Of a DNA stretch of 64,000 nucleotides, positions 52,495-60,633 are shown piece by piece. Below the pieces are notes generated by a model that was not told where the DNA came from, did no database searches, and saw nothing but the letters and a program-made list of their open reading frames with translations. How positions within the stretch are numbered: position 1 is the stretch's first letter; each line of letters opens with the position of its first letter. The position numbers and the translations under genes are program-made. Source of the stretch: Acidobacteriota bacterium (GTDB lineage Bacteria > Acidobacteriota > CAIWXX01); NCBI GenBank assembly GCA_040755995.1, contig JBFMAF010000016.1:32001-96000 (forward strand), in the 5' to 3' direction.

Positions 52495-54261
52495 ATGATG
52501 ATGAGAAGAATCGCTCTCGCCACTTTGAGCATGCTCGCCGTACCAGTGCTCTACGCGCACCAGACACTGAAGACTCTGACACTTTCTCCGGATTTCAGCG
52601 AGGTCGCGGGGACGCCTCGCATGGCGACGGACACTACCCAGCGCCAGTGGGCGGTCGCGTGGCTTCAATATGGGAGCCCCGTCAAGATCATGGGGCGCAT
52701 CGTGAAGCCGGATGGGAGCCTGAAGCCGCCCAAACTGCTTGCATCGTCAGTCGAGGAGTTCGAGCAGAATTTTGACCTCGCATACGGCTTCGTCGATCGC
52801 ACCTATCTGCTCGTCTTCGAGAATGCTGCCGGATTGCAGGTCCAACGGCTCACGAAGGACCTGGCGCGGAAGGGGAAGCCGATTCTGATCGAGGCGGGAA
52901 CTGAAGGAGTGAATCCGAGGATGGTGTACGATCCCACGGGCAATCGATTCCTGGTGATCTGGATCGGCAACCAGGATGGAAGCGAGCGCAACGCGCTCAG
53001 AGGCGCGGTGCTGGCCTCGACGGGCGTGCCCACTGAGCCTGCGCACACGCTGGCCCTCGCTGCGAAAGGACGAGCGTTGGCCATTCCGTCGGTCGTGCGC
53101 AACGAAGAGACCAACAACTTCACGGTTCTGGTCGTGGAGAAGACCGGCACGGCCGGACGGTTTCTGGGCTTCACTGCCAGGCCCGATGGATCGCTGCTGC
53201 GCTCGACGCCGATTCAATTTCAGGGCATGACCCCGGGGCTCAGCGCCATTGGCGCCTCGGCGTACTCCGAGAGCGGGTTCGGGTTTGCAGCGTGGCTCGA
53301 CCGGGGCAAGCTCAAATACCGAAAGGTCTCGCCGACCGGCGGCCTGGCATCGGGCATCAAGACGGTGGCGAACGCGGCCGACAGCAGCAGCTCCGAGGTC
53401 TCCTTTGTGTACGACGGATCCCACGACGAATTCGTTGGGGTCTGGACCAAAGCCAACGGGGCGTACGCTGCGGGGCTGGCCGAGGCATCAGGCAAGGTGT
53501 CCGACGCGCCGTTTCAGATCGCCGCGTCGGCGCTGAGCCAGTCTCTCCATCCTGCACTATCGATCGATCAGACATCTGGTCGACTGTTTGCAATCTGGGA
53601 GGACAGCCAGGCCGCGTCGAGATCGGCCATCGCAGCCGCCACGAAGTACAGGGTACGAGCTGCGCTGTTCGCCAGGGAGGCGCAGGGTGCCGTCGTAGAC
53701 GTCTCCGGCGAGGACAACGTCTTCGCGCCGTCTACGGTCAATATTTCGCCAGGCGACACCGTGAGGTGGACGATGACCGGCAACAATCCGCATACGGTGA
53801 CGAGTGGAACGCCTTCATCTTCCCCCGGTACGCTGTTCGACAGCGGCACGCTGACCAAGGGCCAGACGTTCCAGTTTCAATTCACGACTCCGGGAACGTA
53901 CCCGTACTTCTGCCGAATTCATGGCGCAATGATGTCCGGAACGGTCGTAGTGGGCGGGGGGCCTTCGACGAAGCAGGTCTCCATTGGAGACGGCTCCTTC
54001 GCTCCAGCCTCGATCTCGGTGGCTGCCGGGTCCACCGTCACGTGGAAAATGAGCTCGACCATGCAGCACACGGTAACCAGCGGCTCTCCCTCGTCGTCGC
54101 CCGGGGCGCTCTTCGACAGCGGCACCTTGAAATCCGGCGATGTCTTCAGTTTCCGATTCACCGACGCCGGAACATACACTTACTACTGCCGCCTGCACGG
54201 GGACGGGATGTCGGGTACGGTGGAGGTCACATCTTACGACGGGGGTGGGGACCCGTATTGA
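52495..54261 (+). CDS. Secreted protein with a beta-propeller-like N-terminus and two C-terminal cupredoxin (plastocyanin-like) domains
   Basis: Signal peptide; two type-1 Cu sites: PHTVT...YFCRIHGAMM and QHTVT...YYCRLHGDGM. Confidence 0.88.
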   Translation: MMMRRIALATLSMLAVPVLYAHQTLKTLTLSPDFSEVAGTPRMATDTTQRQWAVAWLQYGSPVKIMGRIVKPDGSLKPPKLLASSVEEFEQNFDLAYGFVDRTYLLVFENAAGLQVQRLTKDLARKGKPILIEAGTEGVNPRMVYDPTGNRFLVIWIGNQDGSERNALRGAVLASTGVPTEPAHTLALAAKGRALAIPSVVRNEETNNFTVLVVEKTGTAGRFLGFTARPDGSLLRSTPIQFQGMTPGLSAIGASAYSESGFGFAAWLDRGKLKYRKVSPTGGLASGIKTVANAADSSSSEVSFVYDGSHDEFVGVWTKANGAYAAGLAEASGKVSDAPFQIAASALSQSLHPALSIDQTSGRLFAIWEDSQAASRSAIAAATKYRVRAALFAREAQGAVVDVSGEDNVFAPSTVNISPGDTVRWTMTGNNPHTVTSGTPSSSPGTLFDSGTLTKGQTFQFQFTTPGTYPYFCRIHGAMMSGTVVVGGGPSTKQVSIGDGSFAPASISVAAGSTVTWKMSSTMQHTVTSGSPSSSPGALFDSGTLKSGDVFSFRFTDAGTYTYYCRLHGDGMSGTVEVTSYDGGGDPY

Positions 54262-54730
54262 CTTCTCTCCCGACGCGTACCTGATCGGCGAGAGACGGCG
54301 GAAGGGACGAGGTCTGCGAGCGTCCCTTTCGCCTTTCCCACTCCCGGCACCTTCGCCGTAATACCCTGTTGCCCGGCTGGCGAACCGCGATCAGCACAGG
54401 AACGATCCATGCGAGGGCATCGGTTAGCCGGCGGGAGCCTGCTCCTTGCGCCGCCACACGAGCCATGCCGACCGCAGTCTGCCGATAACGAGCGACACAA
54501 CACCCGCGAGCAGAAACGTCATGTCTCCCGTCATGCGAACCAAGTGTTTAACATCGGCGACCTCCGTCCCGTTCCCGACTCGGGCATTCGCACCCGCGGT
54601 CAGGGCTCGGTGGAGAAACTCCGCTTGGCGTCGGGGGCGTGGGTGGAGTAGAATCGCCCCCAACGAAAGGGACACCCACCGAGCGGTGCGCGCCGAGGCC
54701 TTTGCGCACCATGGGGTCAGGCAACGCCGG

Positions 54731-55705
54731 ATGATTCAAGACGGGCTCGTCGAGTATCTCATGCCGCTCAGAACTGTGCCGAAGAACTTTGCCCGACTCG
54801 ACACGCAGCGCCTGATGCTCCAAGACCGCGTTCGCGTGGCCGCACTGCAACGGGCGATCACCGCGGCTGTACAGCCGGGCGACGTGGTGCTCGAGATCGG
54901 AACGGGAACGGGCCTGCTGGCGATTCTCGCGGCACGCGCCGGTGCTCGCAGGGTATACGCGATTGAGATGACGGAGATGGTGGAGGTCGCGCGCGAGATG
55001 GTGCGCCGAAACGGCCTGGCGGCGCAGATCCAGATACTGGAAGGCGTGTCGTTCGAGATCGAGCTACCGGAGCGTGCTGACGTGCTGATCAGCGAGACCC
55101 TGGGGCATCTCGGCATAGACGAGGGCATCGTGCAGACCGTAGCTGATGCGCGCCGGCGCCTCCTGAAACCTCACGCGCTCCAGGTGCCCATCAGCCTCGA
55201 CATCCTGCTTGCCCTGACAGCCGATCGCGCAGCGCAGAATCGCGAGCTGGCATTCTGGCGCCAACCGCTCGCAGGTGTTGACTGCAGCGCCGCTGCCGAC
55301 GCCGCCGCCGGCCGCGTCTACCTGCGACGCGTCATGGATAGCGAGTTGCTTTCACATCCACGGATCGTAGCTCACATCGACCTGACCACGGCAGAACAGC
55401 CGCCCGCTGTGTTTGGTGCATGCCTCGCCGTCTGCAGGGCCGGCGAGGTGAGCGGAATCGCAGCCTGGTTTGAGTGCCAGCTCTTCGACGACGTGCGCCT
55501 CATGTCGCGAAGCACGTCGAATTGGTACCCGGTCCTCTTCCCGGTCGACCCGCCGCTTGCGGTGGCCCCGATGGAGGAAGTCCGGAGCTGCATCACCGTG
55601 CGCGAGCATCGAGGTGAGGCAGCATGGTCATGGTGTGTGCGCGGCGTCTCTGGGGAACGCAGGTGCGGGCGCTGTGATCTACCTGACCCCGGACAGCTGT
55701 CTTGA
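54731..55705 (+). CDS. Protein arginine methyltransferase (PRMT)-like SAM methyltransferase
   Basis: MLQDRVR, VLEIGTGTGLL, VYAIE, double-E loop ISETLGHLGIDE, AAWF, SNW (THW-like); start 54731 or 54761. Confidence 0.85.
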   Translation: MIQDGLVEYLMPLRTVPKNFARLDTQRLMLQDRVRVAALQRAITAAVQPGDVVLEIGTGTGLLAILAARAGARRVYAIEMTEMVEVAREMVRRNGLAAQIQILEGVSFEIELPERADVLISETLGHLGIDEGIVQTVADARRRLLKPHALQVPISLDILLALTADRAAQNRELAFWRQPLAGVDCSAAADAAAGRVYLRRVMDSELLSHPRIVAHIDLTTAEQPPAVFGACLAVCRAGEVSGIAAWFECQLFDDVRLMSRSTSNWYPVLFPVDPPLAVAPMEEVRSCITVREHRGEAAWSWCVRGVSGERRCGRCDLPDPGQLS

Positions 55706-55846
55706 GGTGGAAGAACTTCGGTCGACGACGCCTATCAATACGATCCGGCCAGGTGCAGAGAGAGCTGGCAACAGGCTGTTCGAGTGTGCGAGAATAGGGG
55801 CAGGAGAGAATGCCGATCGGGGGCGGAATCTGCCCGCGATGCGAGG

Positions 55847-56947
55847 ATGAGATCCTACACATGGCCCCAGGCCGCCGTCTGGGAGACGACCCTGGCGTGC
55901 GACATGCGTTGCCGCCACTGCGGATCTTACGCGGGGCGTGCCCGCGCCGAGGAGCTCCCGACCAGGGTGACGCTCGACCTCTGCGACCAGCTCATAGACA
56001 TCGGTTGCTCGCGGGTGATCCTCTCCGGCGGCGAGACCTTTCTCAGGGAGGACTGGGAGGAGATCGCGACGAGGCTCTTGAGGGGGCGGTGCGAAGTCGG
56101 GATCATCTCGAACGGTTTGATGCTGGGCACGGGCTCTGCTCTGCTGGATCGGCTCACGAGTGTCCGCCTCGAATCGGGAGAGATCACGGTCGGCATCAGC
56201 CTGGACGGCCTGGAAGAGACTCACGACTCGATCCGCGGGATGCCGGGAAGCTTCAGGGCTGCGCTCAGGGCCGTCGACCTGCTCATGGAGCGTAGCATCG
56301 CTGTCGTCGTGCTGACGACGGTGAATCGAATGAATCTGCTCGACCTGCTCCCTCTGCGCGACGAGGTCATATACCCCCGGCGACCTTATGCGTGGCAGGT
56401 TCAGACATCCAACTATTACGGGAGAATGAGGGCGCACCCGGAGTGGGTGCTGGCCGATGAGGACTACATGGAGCTTGCCGAGATTCTGGCGGAGTCCCGA
56501 CGGCTTCGCCGATCGGAGCCGAGGACGGACCCGGCGGATTGCATCGGCTACTACGGGATACTCGAAGGCGATCTGCGGGAAACACCCTGGAACGGCTGTC
56601 AGGCGGGGCTCCGCTGCGTCGGCATCCAGAGCAACGGGAACGTGAAGGGCTGCCTCTCGCTGATCGACGACCGGTTTGTCGAAGGGAACATCCGCGAACG
56701 ATCGCTCCTGGAGATATGGGACACGCCTGGGGCGTTCGCGTACAACCGCGAGGCGGACCCGGGGCGGCTGGAGGGCCTTTGCGCCGGATGCGAGCACGGG
56801 CGGAAATGCCATGGCGGCTGCCGGTCGTCTGCACACTCTCACACGGGATCGCTGTACAGCGCTCCCTATTGCCTGTACGGTTTCCAGAGGGCCCGGCCGA
56901 GCCCATCGCTTGCCGGGGTAACGGGATGCGAGCCAGCAATACAGTAG
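55847..56947 (+). CDS. Radical SAM/SPASM peptide maturase, splicease (PlpX)-like
   Basis: AVWETTLACDMRCRHCGS, SLDGLEETHD.IRG..GSF, AWQVQ, IGYYG, WNGCQAG...GNVKGCLSL, CxxCxxxxxCxGGC...PYC. Confidence 0.88.
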   Translation: MRSYTWPQAAVWETTLACDMRCRHCGSYAGRARAEELPTRVTLDLCDQLIDIGCSRVILSGGETFLREDWEEIATRLLRGRCEVGIISNGLMLGTGSALLDRLTSVRLESGEITVGISLDGLEETHDSIRGMPGSFRAALRAVDLLMERSIAVVVLTTVNRMNLLDLLPLRDEVIYPRRPYAWQVQTSNYYGRMRAHPEWVLADEDYMELAEILAESRRLRRSEPRTDPADCIGYYGILEGDLRETPWNGCQAGLRCVGIQSNGNVKGCLSLIDDRFVEGNIRERSLLEIWDTPGAFAYNREADPGRLEGLCAGCEHGRKCHGGCRSSAHSHTGSLYSAPYCLYGFQRARPSPSLAGVTGCEPAIQ

Positions 56948-56956
56948 GAGGGCACC

Positions 56957-57298
56957 ATGAAAATCTCGAGTCATCAGGCGGCGGTCACAGCGATCAAGAC
57001 CGCACTGACCGGCAAGACCGCAGCCGCTGGAAAGGCGAAGCGGAGCGAGCCACTCGCCACGCTCAAGAGGGCCGGCCCGGCGGACGTGTCCAAGATCTTC
57101 TCGCGAAAAGTGGGCGGGCTACCGGCGGATGCCCCGCAAATCAAGATGATGTACGGCCTCCCCACCATGCCGGCCGACAAGCTCCCTGGCCCCGTCCTGC
57201 GGTATGGCCTCATTCCGCATCTGCAATCGCAGCAGCCCACAGAGCCGCAGATCATCATGAAATACGGGATCGCCCCAAAGCCAGGTTCCAATGAATGA
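56957..57298 (+). CDS. Putative RiPP precursor with three X-Y-G sites
   Basis: AGGAGG RBS; start 9 bp after the rSAM stop; cores QIKMMYGLP, PVLRYGLIP, QIIMKYGIAP. Confidence 0.8.
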   Translation: MKISSHQAAVTAIKTALTGKTAAAGKAKRSEPLATLKRAGPADVSKIFSRKVGGLPADAPQIKMMYGLPTMPADKLPGPVLRYGLIPHLQSQQPTEPQIIMKYGIAPKPGSNE

Positions 57299-57316
57299 CC
57301 GTGGGGGAGTCACGCC

Positions 57317-57589
57317 ATGAAGACGCAGCAGCCTGAACTGCAGTTCCGGGTATTAGACAGAGTCGTGGCCCAGGGCCGGACACGGCTCGAGAGCATGTTT
57401 CGCGAGACCATGTCGGACCTCTCACAGCTTTCGCGGGAATCGCTCGACGATGAACAGCGCCACGAGCTGGATAGTCTGCTCGATGCGTACCGTCTCGTCG
57501 AGGAGCTCGTCATGGAACTGGTCTCTCTCAAGGAGGACCTGATGCTCAGAGCGAGATCGGAATCCGGGAGGGTCAGATGTCGCACCTGA
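57317..57589 (+). CDS. Small acidic helical (coiled-coil) hypothetical protein
   Basis: GGGGAG RBS; 90 aa; overlaps the next gene. Confidence 0.7.
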   Translation: MKTQQPELQFRVLDRVVAQGRTRLESMFRETMSDLSQLSRESLDDEQRHELDSLLDAYRLVEELVMELVSLKEDLMLRARSESGRVRCRT

Positions 57590-57999
57590 ACATCCAGGCA
57601 AGTCCGGAAGAGGTGCTCGTCCTGATGGAAGCCAGCATGCTCTTCTACGCCCGATGCGAGTACGAGAAAGCGGAGAAGGTCCTTCGAGGCGCCCTCGTCA
57701 TGTCACCCGGCAATTCTGATATCTACGCCTGCCTGGGGGCTCTCTATCACGCGCAGGACCGTCTGGATGAAGCCTACGAGTGCTATGAGCAAGCGCTCAA
57801 GGGATGCCCGTCGGAAGAGTGCGCGCGGAGCAACCGGGCCACGCTTCTGATGCAACGAGGCAAGGCCGAGGACGCGATCCAGGAGCTCAAGCGGGTGATC
57901 CAGGAGCACGATCCCTCCAACCCGGTCGTCGAACGCTCGAAGGAGCTCCTAAAGGTGGCCGAGTCGCTTGTCACGCGGAAGACAGGGGCCGCCGGATAA
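57577..57999 (+). CDS. Stand-alone three-TPR protein, SycD/LcrH-like chaperone
   Basis: GGGAGG RBS; 140 aa; YEKAEKVLRGAL..P...YACLGALY..Q....EAYECYEQAL. Confidence 0.75.
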   Translation: MSHLNIQASPEEVLVLMEASMLFYARCEYEKAEKVLRGALVMSPGNSDIYACLGALYHAQDRLDEAYECYEQALKGCPSEECARSNRATLLMQRGKAEDAIQELKRVIQEHDPSNPVVERSKELLKVAESLVTRKTGAAG

Positions 58000-58179: not shown

Positions 58180-60633
58180 ATGAGATGCAATTCACTCCTC
58201 ACCGTGGCTCTGCTGGTTATGGGAGCCAGCATTCTTTCATCAGGCGATAACCGGTGGACATGCATCGGTCCGTATGGCGGCGACATTGGCAAGTTCGCGT
58301 TCCATCCGTCGCTTCACAATCTAGTTTTCGCAAGCGGGGATACTGGGCTGTTCCGAAGCGCGGATGGTGGGCGCAAGTGGGAGCGTGTGCATGACTCGTG
58401 GGTGGTGGGAGACGGCACCGAGCCGAATGTGCGCATACACCCCGCAGACGGAGCGCGGGTCTTCCTGGCAGATGACCGTCTGTATGTCAGTAGTGACCGT
58501 GGAACCACATGGCAGCTGATATCACGGGAGCCGTTTCCGGAGCGGGCCTCTGACTTCGAGATGGATCCGTCCGACCCGAGTGTCCTGTACATACTCACAC
58601 GGCTTCACGGAGTGTACAGGAGCACGGACGGCGGAGTGACGTGGGCTCCGAGGAACTCCGGATTGGACATCCCCGCAGGCCGTTTTGCCGCCAGACCTCA
58701 GTTGGAAATCAACCCGACTGGCGGCAACACGCTCTATGTCTTGCTGCCAGATCACAAGATCTTCAAGACGACTACCGGTGGTGCTCACTGGAAGCGCATG
58801 GATAAAGGAATCGATCCCAGCTCGGACGGAAGAGCGCTCATGATCGACCCTTCGAATACAGACTTCCTGTACACAGCGGGCGAGGCTGGAGTATTCAAGA
58901 CCACAGACGCCGGAATGAACTGGGCCAAGGTCCATGACGCTGCCACATGGGGACTCGCAACAGACCACGGGAGACCCAATTCTGTCTACGCAGTGAGGCT
59001 GTCTGAATTGCTCAAAACCGTCGACGGGGGCGCCACCTGGACATCGATCGACCTGGATCTCTCTCATGCTACCGTTGCCGGCGTTCATCCCTCCAAGGAC
59101 AATCTCATCCTAGTCGGAGAGAAACTGGGCATCACCCGGTCCACGGACACGGGTAAGTCATGGCATGCCGTGAACGCAGGCATTGACAACTACCTGGCAA
59201 CCCGAATGGCCTATACAGAGAGTCCTGTGAAACGACTGTTCTGCGTTGCGTCTGCCGCCCTCTACGAGAGTCAGGATGGCGGAAGAAACTGGGCGCTGTC
59301 TTCACTTTCCGAGGAAGGTCGGCTTGTGATCGACCTGCAGGTTCACGCTGCAAACCCGCGGCTGATTTTCGCGGGGTTGGGCGTGACGACCGAAATCCTC
59401 GCCCTGAGCCGCGACGGCGGCTCAACATGGGAGTTCGGAGCTCCTATCCGCAAGACCGGGTGGTGCCATGGTGTGGCGATAGCACTCGACCCGCGTGAGG
59501 AGAGCATTGTTTACATGGCGGTCTGGGAAGATCGCGAGAACGCTCCACGCATAGGACGCGGAGTGGCAAAGAGCACGGACCAGGGGCAGACCTGGCGATT
59601 CATGAACGCAGGGCTCTCGGAAAGGTATGTAACTGCACTCGCCGTCGATCCGAGACGTGCCTCGGTACTCTTGGCCGGCACAGGCGATCTGCACGGCCAG
59701 GGCGTGGCCACCGGCCAGATATTCAAGACCACAAACGGCGGAGCAACATGGAAGAAGAGCAGCACTGGTCTGGCCGAGGACGAGGTTCTGGTGTCGGCGA
59801 TCACGTTCGACCCGGATGATTCCACAGTTGTTTACACAGCCACAGGTTCCGGTGTGTACAAGAGCAGCGATGGCGGTCGAACCTGGGCGCTCAAGACAGG
59901 TCCGCTGGGCTGTGCTTTCGTGCAGCCTCTGCCGGCAATGCCAAAGACCCTAATGGCGGGCAGGTCCGGCAGCCTCCTGATCTCGATTGATCAAGGTGAG
60001 TCCTGGACGGCCTTCGATTCCACTGGCCTCGGCCCCTTCGGCATGAACGACTTCATGCTCGACCCATTGGACTCAAGCCGCTACCTCATAGGCACCAACC
60101 GCGGAGTCTTCTCATATACCCGGAAGGGTGCTATTGGGGGTCCTGTCATCCAGCAGCTCTCGCCTGACGCCGGGAGAGTCGGTGACTCCGTGACGATCAA
60201 CGGGAGCGGATACGGCCAGCTCCAGCTGGACTCGAAAGTGCGCTTCGGATCAATCGATGCCGGCGTCGCGCAATCGTGGTCGGACGAGAGCATCAGAGTG
60301 ACGGTGCCGTCTGGCGCCCGCACCGGGGCGGTAGCGGTCACGGTACTTGGCAAGAAGAGCAACGCTTTCGGCTTCATCGTCATGCCGGCCACCGGGAACA
60401 TAGAGCCCACGGGCGGCCCGGCCTCAGGCGGCACACGCGTCACGATCCTCGCCCCATCGGGAACCTCGGGCACACAGTTCAACGTGCTCTTCGGCTCCAC
60501 CCTCGCCAGGAATATCGGTTTCGTCCAGCCGAATGTTATCACGTGCGAGAGCCCACCTGGCTCGGGCACGGTCGAGGTGAAGGTGACGAGCAGCGTGACG
60601 AGCACGACCGTGGGCCAATTCACGTACTACTGA
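58180..60633 (+). CDS. Secreted BNR/Asp-box (VPS10/Ycf48-like) beta-propeller with two IPT/TIG domains
   Basis: GGAGG RBS; signal peptide; many S.DGG.TW repeats; GDSVTINGSG and GPASGGTRVTI IPT domains. Confidence 0.88.
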   Translation: MRCNSLLTVALLVMGASILSSGDNRWTCIGPYGGDIGKFAFHPSLHNLVFASGDTGLFRSADGGRKWERVHDSWVVGDGTEPNVRIHPADGARVFLADDRLYVSSDRGTTWQLISREPFPERASDFEMDPSDPSVLYILTRLHGVYRSTDGGVTWAPRNSGLDIPAGRFAARPQLEINPTGGNTLYVLLPDHKIFKTTTGGAHWKRMDKGIDPSSDGRALMIDPSNTDFLYTAGEAGVFKTTDAGMNWAKVHDAATWGLATDHGRPNSVYAVRLSELLKTVDGGATWTSIDLDLSHATVAGVHPSKDNLILVGEKLGITRSTDTGKSWHAVNAGIDNYLATRMAYTESPVKRLFCVASAALYESQDGGRNWALSSLSEEGRLVIDLQVHAANPRLIFAGLGVTTEILALSRDGGSTWEFGAPIRKTGWCHGVAIALDPREESIVYMAVWEDRENAPRIGRGVAKSTDQGQTWRFMNAGLSERYVTALAVDPRRASVLLAGTGDLHGQGVATGQIFKTTNGGATWKKSSTGLAEDEVLVSAITFDPDDSTVVYTATGSGVYKSSDGGRTWALKTGPLGCAFVQPLPAMPKTLMAGRSGSLLISIDQGESWTAFDSTGLGPFGMNDFMLDPLDSSRYLIGTNRGVFSYTRKGAIGGPVIQQLSPDAGRVGDSVTINGSGYGQLQLDSKVRFGSIDAGVAQSWSDESIRVTVPSGARTGAVAVTVLGKKSNAFGFIVMPATGNIEPTGGPASGGTRVTILAPSGTSGTQFNVLFGSTLARNIGFVQPNVITCESPPGSGTVEVKVTSSVTSTTVGQFTYY

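Follow-up and report, generated by a model that had tools for sequence, protein, structure and literature searches.

The DNA window analysed here comprises 64,000 nucleotides from an Acidobacteriota bacterium (G000:C16:32001-96000, where G000 is the genome and C16 the contig) and contains a conserved unit of four genes. These encode a radical S-adenosylmethionine (rSAM) enzyme with a SPASM domain, a protein with tyrosine-glycine (YG) repeats, a small helical protein and a tetratricopeptide repeat (TPR) protein. The enzyme probably splices tyramine out of the YG-repeat protein, whereas the helical and TPR proteins look like a duplicated needle-chaperone pair of a secretion system of type III (T3SS), similar to YscE/YscG and CdsE/CdsG. 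We see about an even chance that this splicease cassette, which has no recognition element (RRE) for peptides that are synthesized by ribosomes and modified after translation (RiPPs), is wired to the non-flagellar T3SS of the cell. More tentatively still, and a little short of an even bet, we propose that the YG-repeat protein is a T3SS substrate that is armed with spliced α-keto-β-Arg/Lys warheads and delivered by the duplicated chaperone pair. The injectisome would then act as a RiPP exporter, and the cassette would be one of several such modules in the lineage.

A previous reading of the window from its sequence alone had proposed a spliceotide pathway of five co-oriented genes, with the final four nearly abutting (Table 1). 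This layout is correct: the five open reading frames lie on the + strand and are separated by 141 bp, 9 bp and 18 bp, followed by an overlap of 13 bp. It is also correct that the 113-aa protein, which starts 9 bp past the rSAM gene, has tyrosines only in X-Y-G motifs. Genome-wide, the probability of finding Gly after Tyr is 0.08, and three out of three Tyr-Gly in the 113-aa protein would thus be expected by chance with a probability of ~0.0005. At least three YG are found in 22 of 2753 script-called small proteins, and the 113-aa protein is the only one among the 22 that has just three Tyr.

To survey the neighbourhoods of homologs, we used 94 loci with a related rSAM, of which 10 have at least 50% identity to the window enzyme, 53 have lower identity and at least 1.2 kb downstream, and 31 are too short to judge. 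YG-rich peptides adjoin the homologs, as the sequence-only reading had predicted, and X-Y-G precursors are conserved in all ten close loci. Furthermore, the order rSAM, YG-repeat protein, helical domain and TPR is kept in 10/10 of these loci, which form six independent groups besides the window (L020, L021, L026, L027 and L088 are near-identical). The helical gene was found in none of the 53 lower-identity loci. The profile for the helical domain was built from the cassette loci themselves; when the window helical protein was used alone, nine of the ten were still found. The fifth gene, for a putative protein arginine methyltransferase (PRMT), had been counted as a cluster member; it is present in none of the eight homologous loci that have at least 2.2 kb upstream. 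The conserved unit is four genes (rSAM/SPASM, YG-repeat, helical, TPR), not five. Of 401 genomes sampled across the phylum, 4 contain the cassette. We did not find the helical profile in two other genomes of the class or in 401 Myxococcota genomes, the latter in a search without a positive control. In one locus, a transposase pair lies directly upstream of the cassette rSAM (L026:2272-3403), in place of the upstream region of L020 and L021.

The YG-repeat protein is encoded separately from the helical protein in the window and in L025, L028 and L029. In 7/10 loci (three groups), the two are fused into a protein of 193–208 aa with the helical domain as its C-terminal part, and such fusions were also found in two context-free proteins (P0126 and P0132). 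Across nine precursors there are 26 YG sites with Arg (14), Lys (6), Met (3), Val, Ile and Phe at X, i.e. Arg or Lys at 20 of the 26, and the site context is hydrophobic-X-Y-G-hydrophobic-x-P. If an R-Y-G site were spliced, the product would contain the keto-arginine unit known from cyclotheonamide-type serine protease inhibitors. A search with the window precursor as single sequence recovered only itself. Library scans, which covered the five genes of the cassette region and positions 58180-60633, gave no NCBIfam or Pfam match for the precursor and no RRE match for the helical protein. The Nif11/NHLP leader and the PqqD-like Y protein of type I spliceotides (Nif11 and PlpY) are missing from the window locus. 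Among the genes called at 44–75 kb, as judged by sequence starts, we saw none for a protease, an ABC exporter or a PqqD-like protein, in line with the sequence-only reading; likewise, no exporter or peptidase lies beside any of the ten close loci, as far as these were read, and no PqqD-like gene lies in the cassette.

The rSAM enzyme carries the motifs that had been read from its sequence (AVWETTLAC at residue 10 with C18/C22/C25, WQVQ at 183, IGYYG at 233, WNGCQAG at 248 and KGCLSL at 267), and its Radical_SAM (PF04055) and SPASM (PF13186) domains score above the cut-off. In a tree of 45 rows, which remained of 60 after 15 were dropped as wrongly extracted, redundant or long, the enzyme falls into a clade of 18 rows (SH-aLRT support 99). 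This clade is nested in a group of 36 rows (support 94) that includes members of TIGR04103 and TIGR03913 as well as enzymes encoded beside other YG-repeat peptides. For instance, the group includes a Nostoc TIGR04103 protein with a Nif11 precursor and a small downstream gene (L110) and a TIGR03913 protein from Azospirillum (L111). The window genome encodes six other SPASM enzymes, all of which fall outside this group. The profile search and phylogeny that had been suggested as a check thus place the enzyme among YG-associated splicease-like enzymes, but in a clade of its own and below the family cut-offs. As the tree contains no experimentally tested splicease and the enzyme stands apart from the TIGR04103/TIGR03913 clade, we infer splicing from kinship and substrate.

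Some of these results count against splicing and would fit an enzyme that acts on the YG repeats by other tyrosine chemistry (cross-linking, cleavage or another rearrangement), so that the product is no spliceotide. The best NCBIfam matches are TIGR04103 (214 bits, cut-off 725), TIGR03913 (189, cut-off 592) and TIGR04133 (171, cut-off 425), and the enzyme thus scores far under all three curated cut-offs. It lies outside the clade of TIGR04103/TIGR03913 members (support 100), to which it is ~35% identical, and the motifs WQIQ..MGN and NNxGYYG of these members are changed to WQVQ..YYGR and DCIGYYG. However, Gly follows Tyr at every repeat, sister groups likewise have YG precursors, and the site context resembles that of spliced tags such as PIRPLYGLPI (described in PMC10533398). 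We thus regard other chemistry as quite unlikely, whereas splicing of tyramine from the precursor by the rSAM is probable, as judged from sequence relationships. A scan of genome contigs gave only distant rSAMs, and a sequence search of the PDB did not find a splicease structure.

Among the surveyed loci, we observed further types of rSAM neighbourhoods. One locus (L030:882-3715) lacks the chaperone pair; here, genes for a 189-aa protein, in which a single MKYG site occurs, and for another rSAM lie downstream of a sister-clade rSAM. In six loci (L056, L059, L071, L075, L081 and L084), splicease-like rSAMs adjoin peptides with tandem DVYK(A/S)G(T/G)xYGT repeats. In seven others (L050, L051, L060, L063, L083, L087 and L093), they lie by lipoprotein-like precursors whose N-terminus carries a CxxC..CPFC motif and which contain 2–5 YG repeats.

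Of the pathway proposed from the sequence, the tree, the motifs and the neighbourhood survey thus support the splicease-type enzyme and its multi-YG substrate. The accessory set, which had not been recognised, resolves otherwise: the helical and TPR genes are present as claimed, but they resemble T3SS needle co-chaperones, and the PRMT drops out. In the T3SS operon of family f17, a helical gene of 113–116 aa directly precedes a TPR gene with a cassette-like N-terminal signature (KLNIRVTQDEIQFLME vs HLNIQASPEEVLVLME), and the cassette helical profile matches the helical protein of this operon over 67 columns (E 2e-4). The profile also matches a 91-aa protein in the CdsE position of the window genome (E 0.004). 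An AlphaFold2 (AF2) model of the helical protein is a hairpin, for which Foldseek ranked EscE of the EscE/EsaH complex second (E 1.1, no match at E <=0.001). Other fold searches with this model were unspecific (VIA, best Z 7.5; atlas, scores 0.76).

The predicted complex of the TPR and helical proteins scores 0.74, compared to 0.13 for the best control; between runs, at least 94% of contacts coincide, and the confidence score (pLDDT) of the partner is at least 75. The mark used here was reached by 116 of 157 solved pairs and 2 of 215 mismatched pairs, although a pass may stem from likeness to solved pairs. The modelled interface comprises TPR residues 2–42 and leaves the client groove free. 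This matches the contact region of YscE, which binds the N-terminal part of YscG according to PMC13466201. In the model, the two proteins qualify as a YscE/YscG-type pair, and this makes it very likely that they form a heterodimer of this type.

The TPR protein had been labelled as SycD-like, and this label holds in part: SycD is favoured by the profile and fold scores, whereas the tree, the N-terminus, the order of the genes and the partner point to YscG/CdsG. The window TPR scores 41 bits with TIGR02552 (cut-off 105) and 23.5 bits with NF052304 CdsG (cut-off 170), the latter along the full profile. Five cassette TPRs reach 33–61 of the 105 bits of TIGR02552 and no translocator-like neighbour was found, which does not place them in SycD/LcrH class II. 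Fold searches with the TPR returned generic TPRs. Several results speak against the proposed reading and against a clear-cut class III assignment. The cassette TPR profile gives 83 bits for SycD-like paralogs and 61 bits for G-position paralogs, and the best natural Foldseek match of the TPR is SycD, with no YscG among the matches listed. In the tree, one branch (90/98) unites the cassette TPRs with those of the G position, but approximately unbiased (AU) tests leave other groupings unrejected (p 0.13 and 0.32). The hhalign probability of the helical match to the f17 protein is 46%, and 19% without context pseudocounts (E 1e-3). Finally, needle chaperones bind the C-terminal needle helix and are usually not secreted, as described in PMC13466201, and the separate precursors have no such helix. 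Edwardsiella does secrete EscE and EsaH themselves, according to PMC9426511.

A different role for the helical protein would be that of a PlpY-type helix that activates the splicease, with the TPR being incidental. Both PlpY and the RhaA leader activate spliceases via a helix and engineered PlpY-precursor fusions work, according to PMC11414181, and a fusion of helical domain and precursor occurs naturally in most of the close loci. However, a TPR gene follows the helical gene in every one of them, the two proteins model as a heterodimer, and their homologues occur in a T3SS operon without a splicease. A PlpY-type role thus appears very unlikely to us.

The window genome encodes a T3SS that could be served by the cassette. 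On contig C10, SctV, SctN, SctR, SctS and SctL score above the cut-off, which identifies a non-flagellar T3SS. Contig C25 contains, in this order, a FliA-like sigma factor, a long needle-like gene, a SycD-like TPR, the 91-aa helical protein, an 84-aa needle-like protein, a CdsG-like TPR and SctI (above the cut-off), where the needle-like labels were assigned by eye. We take this order to match cdsE-cdsF-cdsG of Chlamydia. The system is split between the two contigs (G000:C10:29800-46200 and G000:C25:14116-18712; L116, L117 and L159) and includes FHA-domain proteins. SctN is above the cut-off in all four cassette genomes and SctV in three of the four, compared to 22 of 401 overall.

The E-F-G-type set on C25 is separate from the cassette, in which no needle-like gene was found as a client of the pair. 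As a candidate needle subunit or SctX, the helical domain itself is unsupported (E 0.32 against needle-like and 0.28 against SctX-like controls). One could also suppose that the YG protein, instead of being delivered as an inhibitor, belongs to the T3SS itself as a modified component with a structural or regulatory role, for example a chaperone decoy or an alternative subunit associated with the needle. It stands in the client position by a needle-type chaperone pair, and in genomes of the cassette lineages several long needle-like paralogs are accompanied by TPRs of their own. We nevertheless rate this as highly improbable: the helical domain is unlike needle-like proteins, and at least 18 of the 22 T3SS-bearing relatives lack the cassette.

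The mechanism that we favour instead is delivery of a modified cargo. In a first step, the rSAM/SPASM enzyme would probably excise tyramine at X-Y-G and leave α-keto-β-residues, mostly from Arg and Lys, which would suit the inhibition of trypsin-like proteases. In a second step, the helical and TPR proteins would very probably assemble into the YscE/YscG-type heterodimer, copied from the needle-chaperone pair of the T3SS. The pair would then hold the precursor, covalently where this is fused to the helical domain, since a cargo fused to the small chaperone subunit is tethered to the TPR. Lastly, and here our expectation is evenly balanced, the modified protein would be exported whole through the T3SS by means of its N-terminal signal. 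Such whole-protein export would explain the missing leader peptidase and ABC exporter. The PRMT-like enzyme may methylate Arg residues of the cargo.

The evidence for export comes in part from the precursor N-termini and from a promoter motif. The N-terminal pattern M-x(1,2)-I-[SGNDPQR], which was picked post hoc, is found in 8/9 precursors compared to 4.3% of genes. Upstream of f17 T3SS-type genes, we read by eye a sigma-28-like motif, RCAAY-N15-YCGATAA, in 7/10 regions. Seven genomes contain 12, 14, 14, 8, 8, 1 and 1 copies, whereas the reversed control gives 1, 1, 0, 0, 2, 0 and 0. Seven of 20 further sites precede genes with a T3S-like N-terminus; the motif is thus enriched for such genes but not specific to them. 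With its help, candidate T3SS substrates of these Acidobacteriota could be listed. The only exact copy in the window genome lies in the needle cluster on C25. The window itself has one match with at most one mismatch, upstream of the PRMT-like gene, where 0.82 would be expected by chance, and a site of this kind precedes 12 of 5931 called genes; sites with up to two mismatches, as before the rSAM gene, precede 175 of 5931 genes. Sigma-70 scans were uninformative. In G017, G064, G035, G101 and G029 (L163-L182), the motif has 8–14 copies per genome and marks many uncharacterised low-complexity genes.

Family f17 contains a second enzyme-plus-T3SS-chaperone module (L160:4453-8081, L161:4062-7131 and L162:2129-9456). 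Here, a low-complexity protein with the T3S-type promoter motif is followed by a TIGR03975 B12 radical SAM RiPP maturase (622 bits, cut-off 282) and a SycD-like TPR. L162 adds a second B12 rSAM and two methyltransferases, which are presumably borosin-like.

Not all observations agree with a connection to the T3SS. The four cassette genomes represent two lineages, and their co-occurrence with a T3SS is thus kin-biased and no statistical test; T3SS status covers these four genomes and leaves out the metagenome loci L025, L028, L029 and L031. No secretin was found in the T3SS stretches read, though genomes of the cassette lineages have secretins elsewhere. The promoter motif is absent (allowing two mismatches) from 8 of 11 loci and 4 of 7 groups. 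Alternatively, the T3SS-derived pair might serve as a cytoplasmic scaffold, co-opted to bring the precursor to the enzyme as a substitute for an RRE or as a stabiliser, with a product that is no T3SS substrate. Besides the missing motif, this would fit the lack of a PqqD-like gene and the distance of the cassette from T3SS operons (another contig in the window genome, ~45 kb in G017), and co-occurrence with the T3SS could stem from the origin of the pair alone. On the other hand, the precursor N-termini resemble those of T3SS-type genes, no exporter or peptidase accompanies the close loci, an exact motif lies upstream of the cassette in two unrelated loci (L019 and L029), and the same genomes couple a TIGR03975 maturase to SycD-like TPRs and low-complexity cargo. 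We consider a scaffold without export unlikely and retain T3SS delivery as our working proposal.

When comparing the cassette to known spliceotide systems, we find that it shares with the binary systems (RhaX/RhaA, RcsX and RasX) and with type I PlpX/PlpY/PlpA the wider rSAM/SPASM group, an adjacent precursor with repeated XYG and a similar site context, as far as these are described in PMC11414181 and PMC11626197. The binary systems described there also have no stand-alone RRE, and spliceases without a Y protein are reported from diverse bacteria (PMC11414181, PMC11626197, PMC10849128, PMC9811515, PMC10373908 and PMC11002830). The cassette differs from both types in its separate enzyme clade, the lack of a Nif11/NHLP leader or double-glycine site, the predominance of Arg/Lys at X, the dedicated helical and TPR pair, the C-terminal helical fusion on many precursors and the T3SS link. 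GDL-motif/DUF1843 systems (TIGR03913; L111 and L112) resemble it in that a single polypeptide, encoded beside a related rSAM, combines a YG-type site with a helical region C-terminal to it. However, their precursors have ~60 aa and one site, there is no TPR, and the cassette helical profile matches none of these loci.

With YscE/YscG, CdsE/CdsG and EscE/EsaH (as outlined in PMC13466201 and PMC9426511), the cassette shares a hairpin gene directly before a three-TPR gene and, in our model, contact on the N-terminal TPR motif. As in class III needle co-chaperones, the pair has homologues in the T3SS operon of these bacteria themselves. In contrast to YscE/YscG, its genes accompany those of a modifying enzyme and a YG-repeat protein and not that of a needle subunit, its small subunit is often fused to the client, and its TPR core is nearer to SycD. 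The needleless T3SS* of Myxococcus xanthus, as described in PMC12075869, is likewise non-flagellar, without an in-cluster secretin, from a free-living bacterium and with largely unknown effectors; in contrast, the window genome has a needle-like gene, SctI above the cut-off and an E-F-G-type order.

Little is known about the T3SS cargo of free-living bacteria. In 2022, the native products of spliceotide pathways, and their functions, were called elusive (PMC9811515). The cassette is thus a candidate for both, a native role of a spliceotide and a T3SS cargo of free-living bacteria. It leads to the prediction that type III secretion releases an intact protein bearing several ketoamide warheads from the cell, and if this is true, a needle-chaperone pair has been re-used for a new client. 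There is a fair chance that export of a modified cargo by an injectisome is a new principle. Titles and abstract starts, to which our literature search was confined, yielded no work that joins a RiPP-type maturase to T3SS chaperones; PMC8939145 mentions a YscW homologue beside ATP-grasp enzymes. The 939 systems predicted by Scott et al. 2022 (Chem; number as given in PMC10533398) may already include this enzyme clade. The compact splicease clade may accept Arg/Lys at X, which could be useful for protein labelling and the design of protease inhibitors.

Table 1. Position of the cassette genes and of associated sites in the window.
Feature	Position	Strand	Remarks
PRMT-like SAM methyltransferase	54731..55705	+	324 aa; local accessory, outside the conserved cassette
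Radical SAM/SPASM enzyme, splicease-like, own clade	55847..56947	+	366 aa; TIGR matches and tree
YG-repeat precursor/cargo, T3S-signal-like N-terminus MKISS	56957..57298	+	113 aa; homologues after rSAM in 10/10 close loci
XYG sites of the 113-aa precursor	57149-57157, 57200-57208, 57260-57268	+	M65-Y66-G, R82-Y83-G, K102-Y103-G
Helical hairpin, YscE/CdsE-like small co-chaperone	57317..57589	+	90 aa; fusions, AF2 model, profile match, complex model
Three-TPR T3SS-type chaperone, YscG/CdsG-like in position and partner, SycD-like core	57577..57999	+	140 aa; profiles, trees, complex model
RCAAY-N15-YCGATAA copy with one mismatch, possible promoter (weak)	54462..54488	+	242 bp 5' of the PRMT-like gene
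RCAAY-N15-YCGATAA copy with two mismatches (weak)	55768..55794	+	52 bp ahead of the rSAM start

The PRMT-like gene is a local, optional addition. Its product scores below threshold with PF17286 (27.9 bits, cut-off 30.3) and PF22528 (25.3 bits, cut-off 27), and it contains SETLGHLGIDE at residue 121 and NWYP at 264, which we take to resemble the double-E and THW loops of PRMTs. As a core member of the cassette it was rejected, since it is absent beside the rSAM homologs in all eight loci with at least 2.2 kb upstream yet present in the cassette-free genome G029. With this query, it was not found in three cassette genomes. The homologue in G029 (48%; L184:1483-2469) adjoins an amino-acid permease. 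A paralog (64%; L011:7877-8839) lies on contig C32 behind a 1386-aa TPR-rich protein, in a context other than that of the cassette.

Two secreted proteins are encoded close to the cassette. On its 3' side (58180-60633) lies an 817-aa secreted beta-propeller with sortilin/Ycf48-like repeats and C-terminal IPT-like domains, which is not kept in the homologous loci. Positions 52495-54261 encode a secreted protein of 588 aa that has two cupredoxin-like repeats at its C-terminus.

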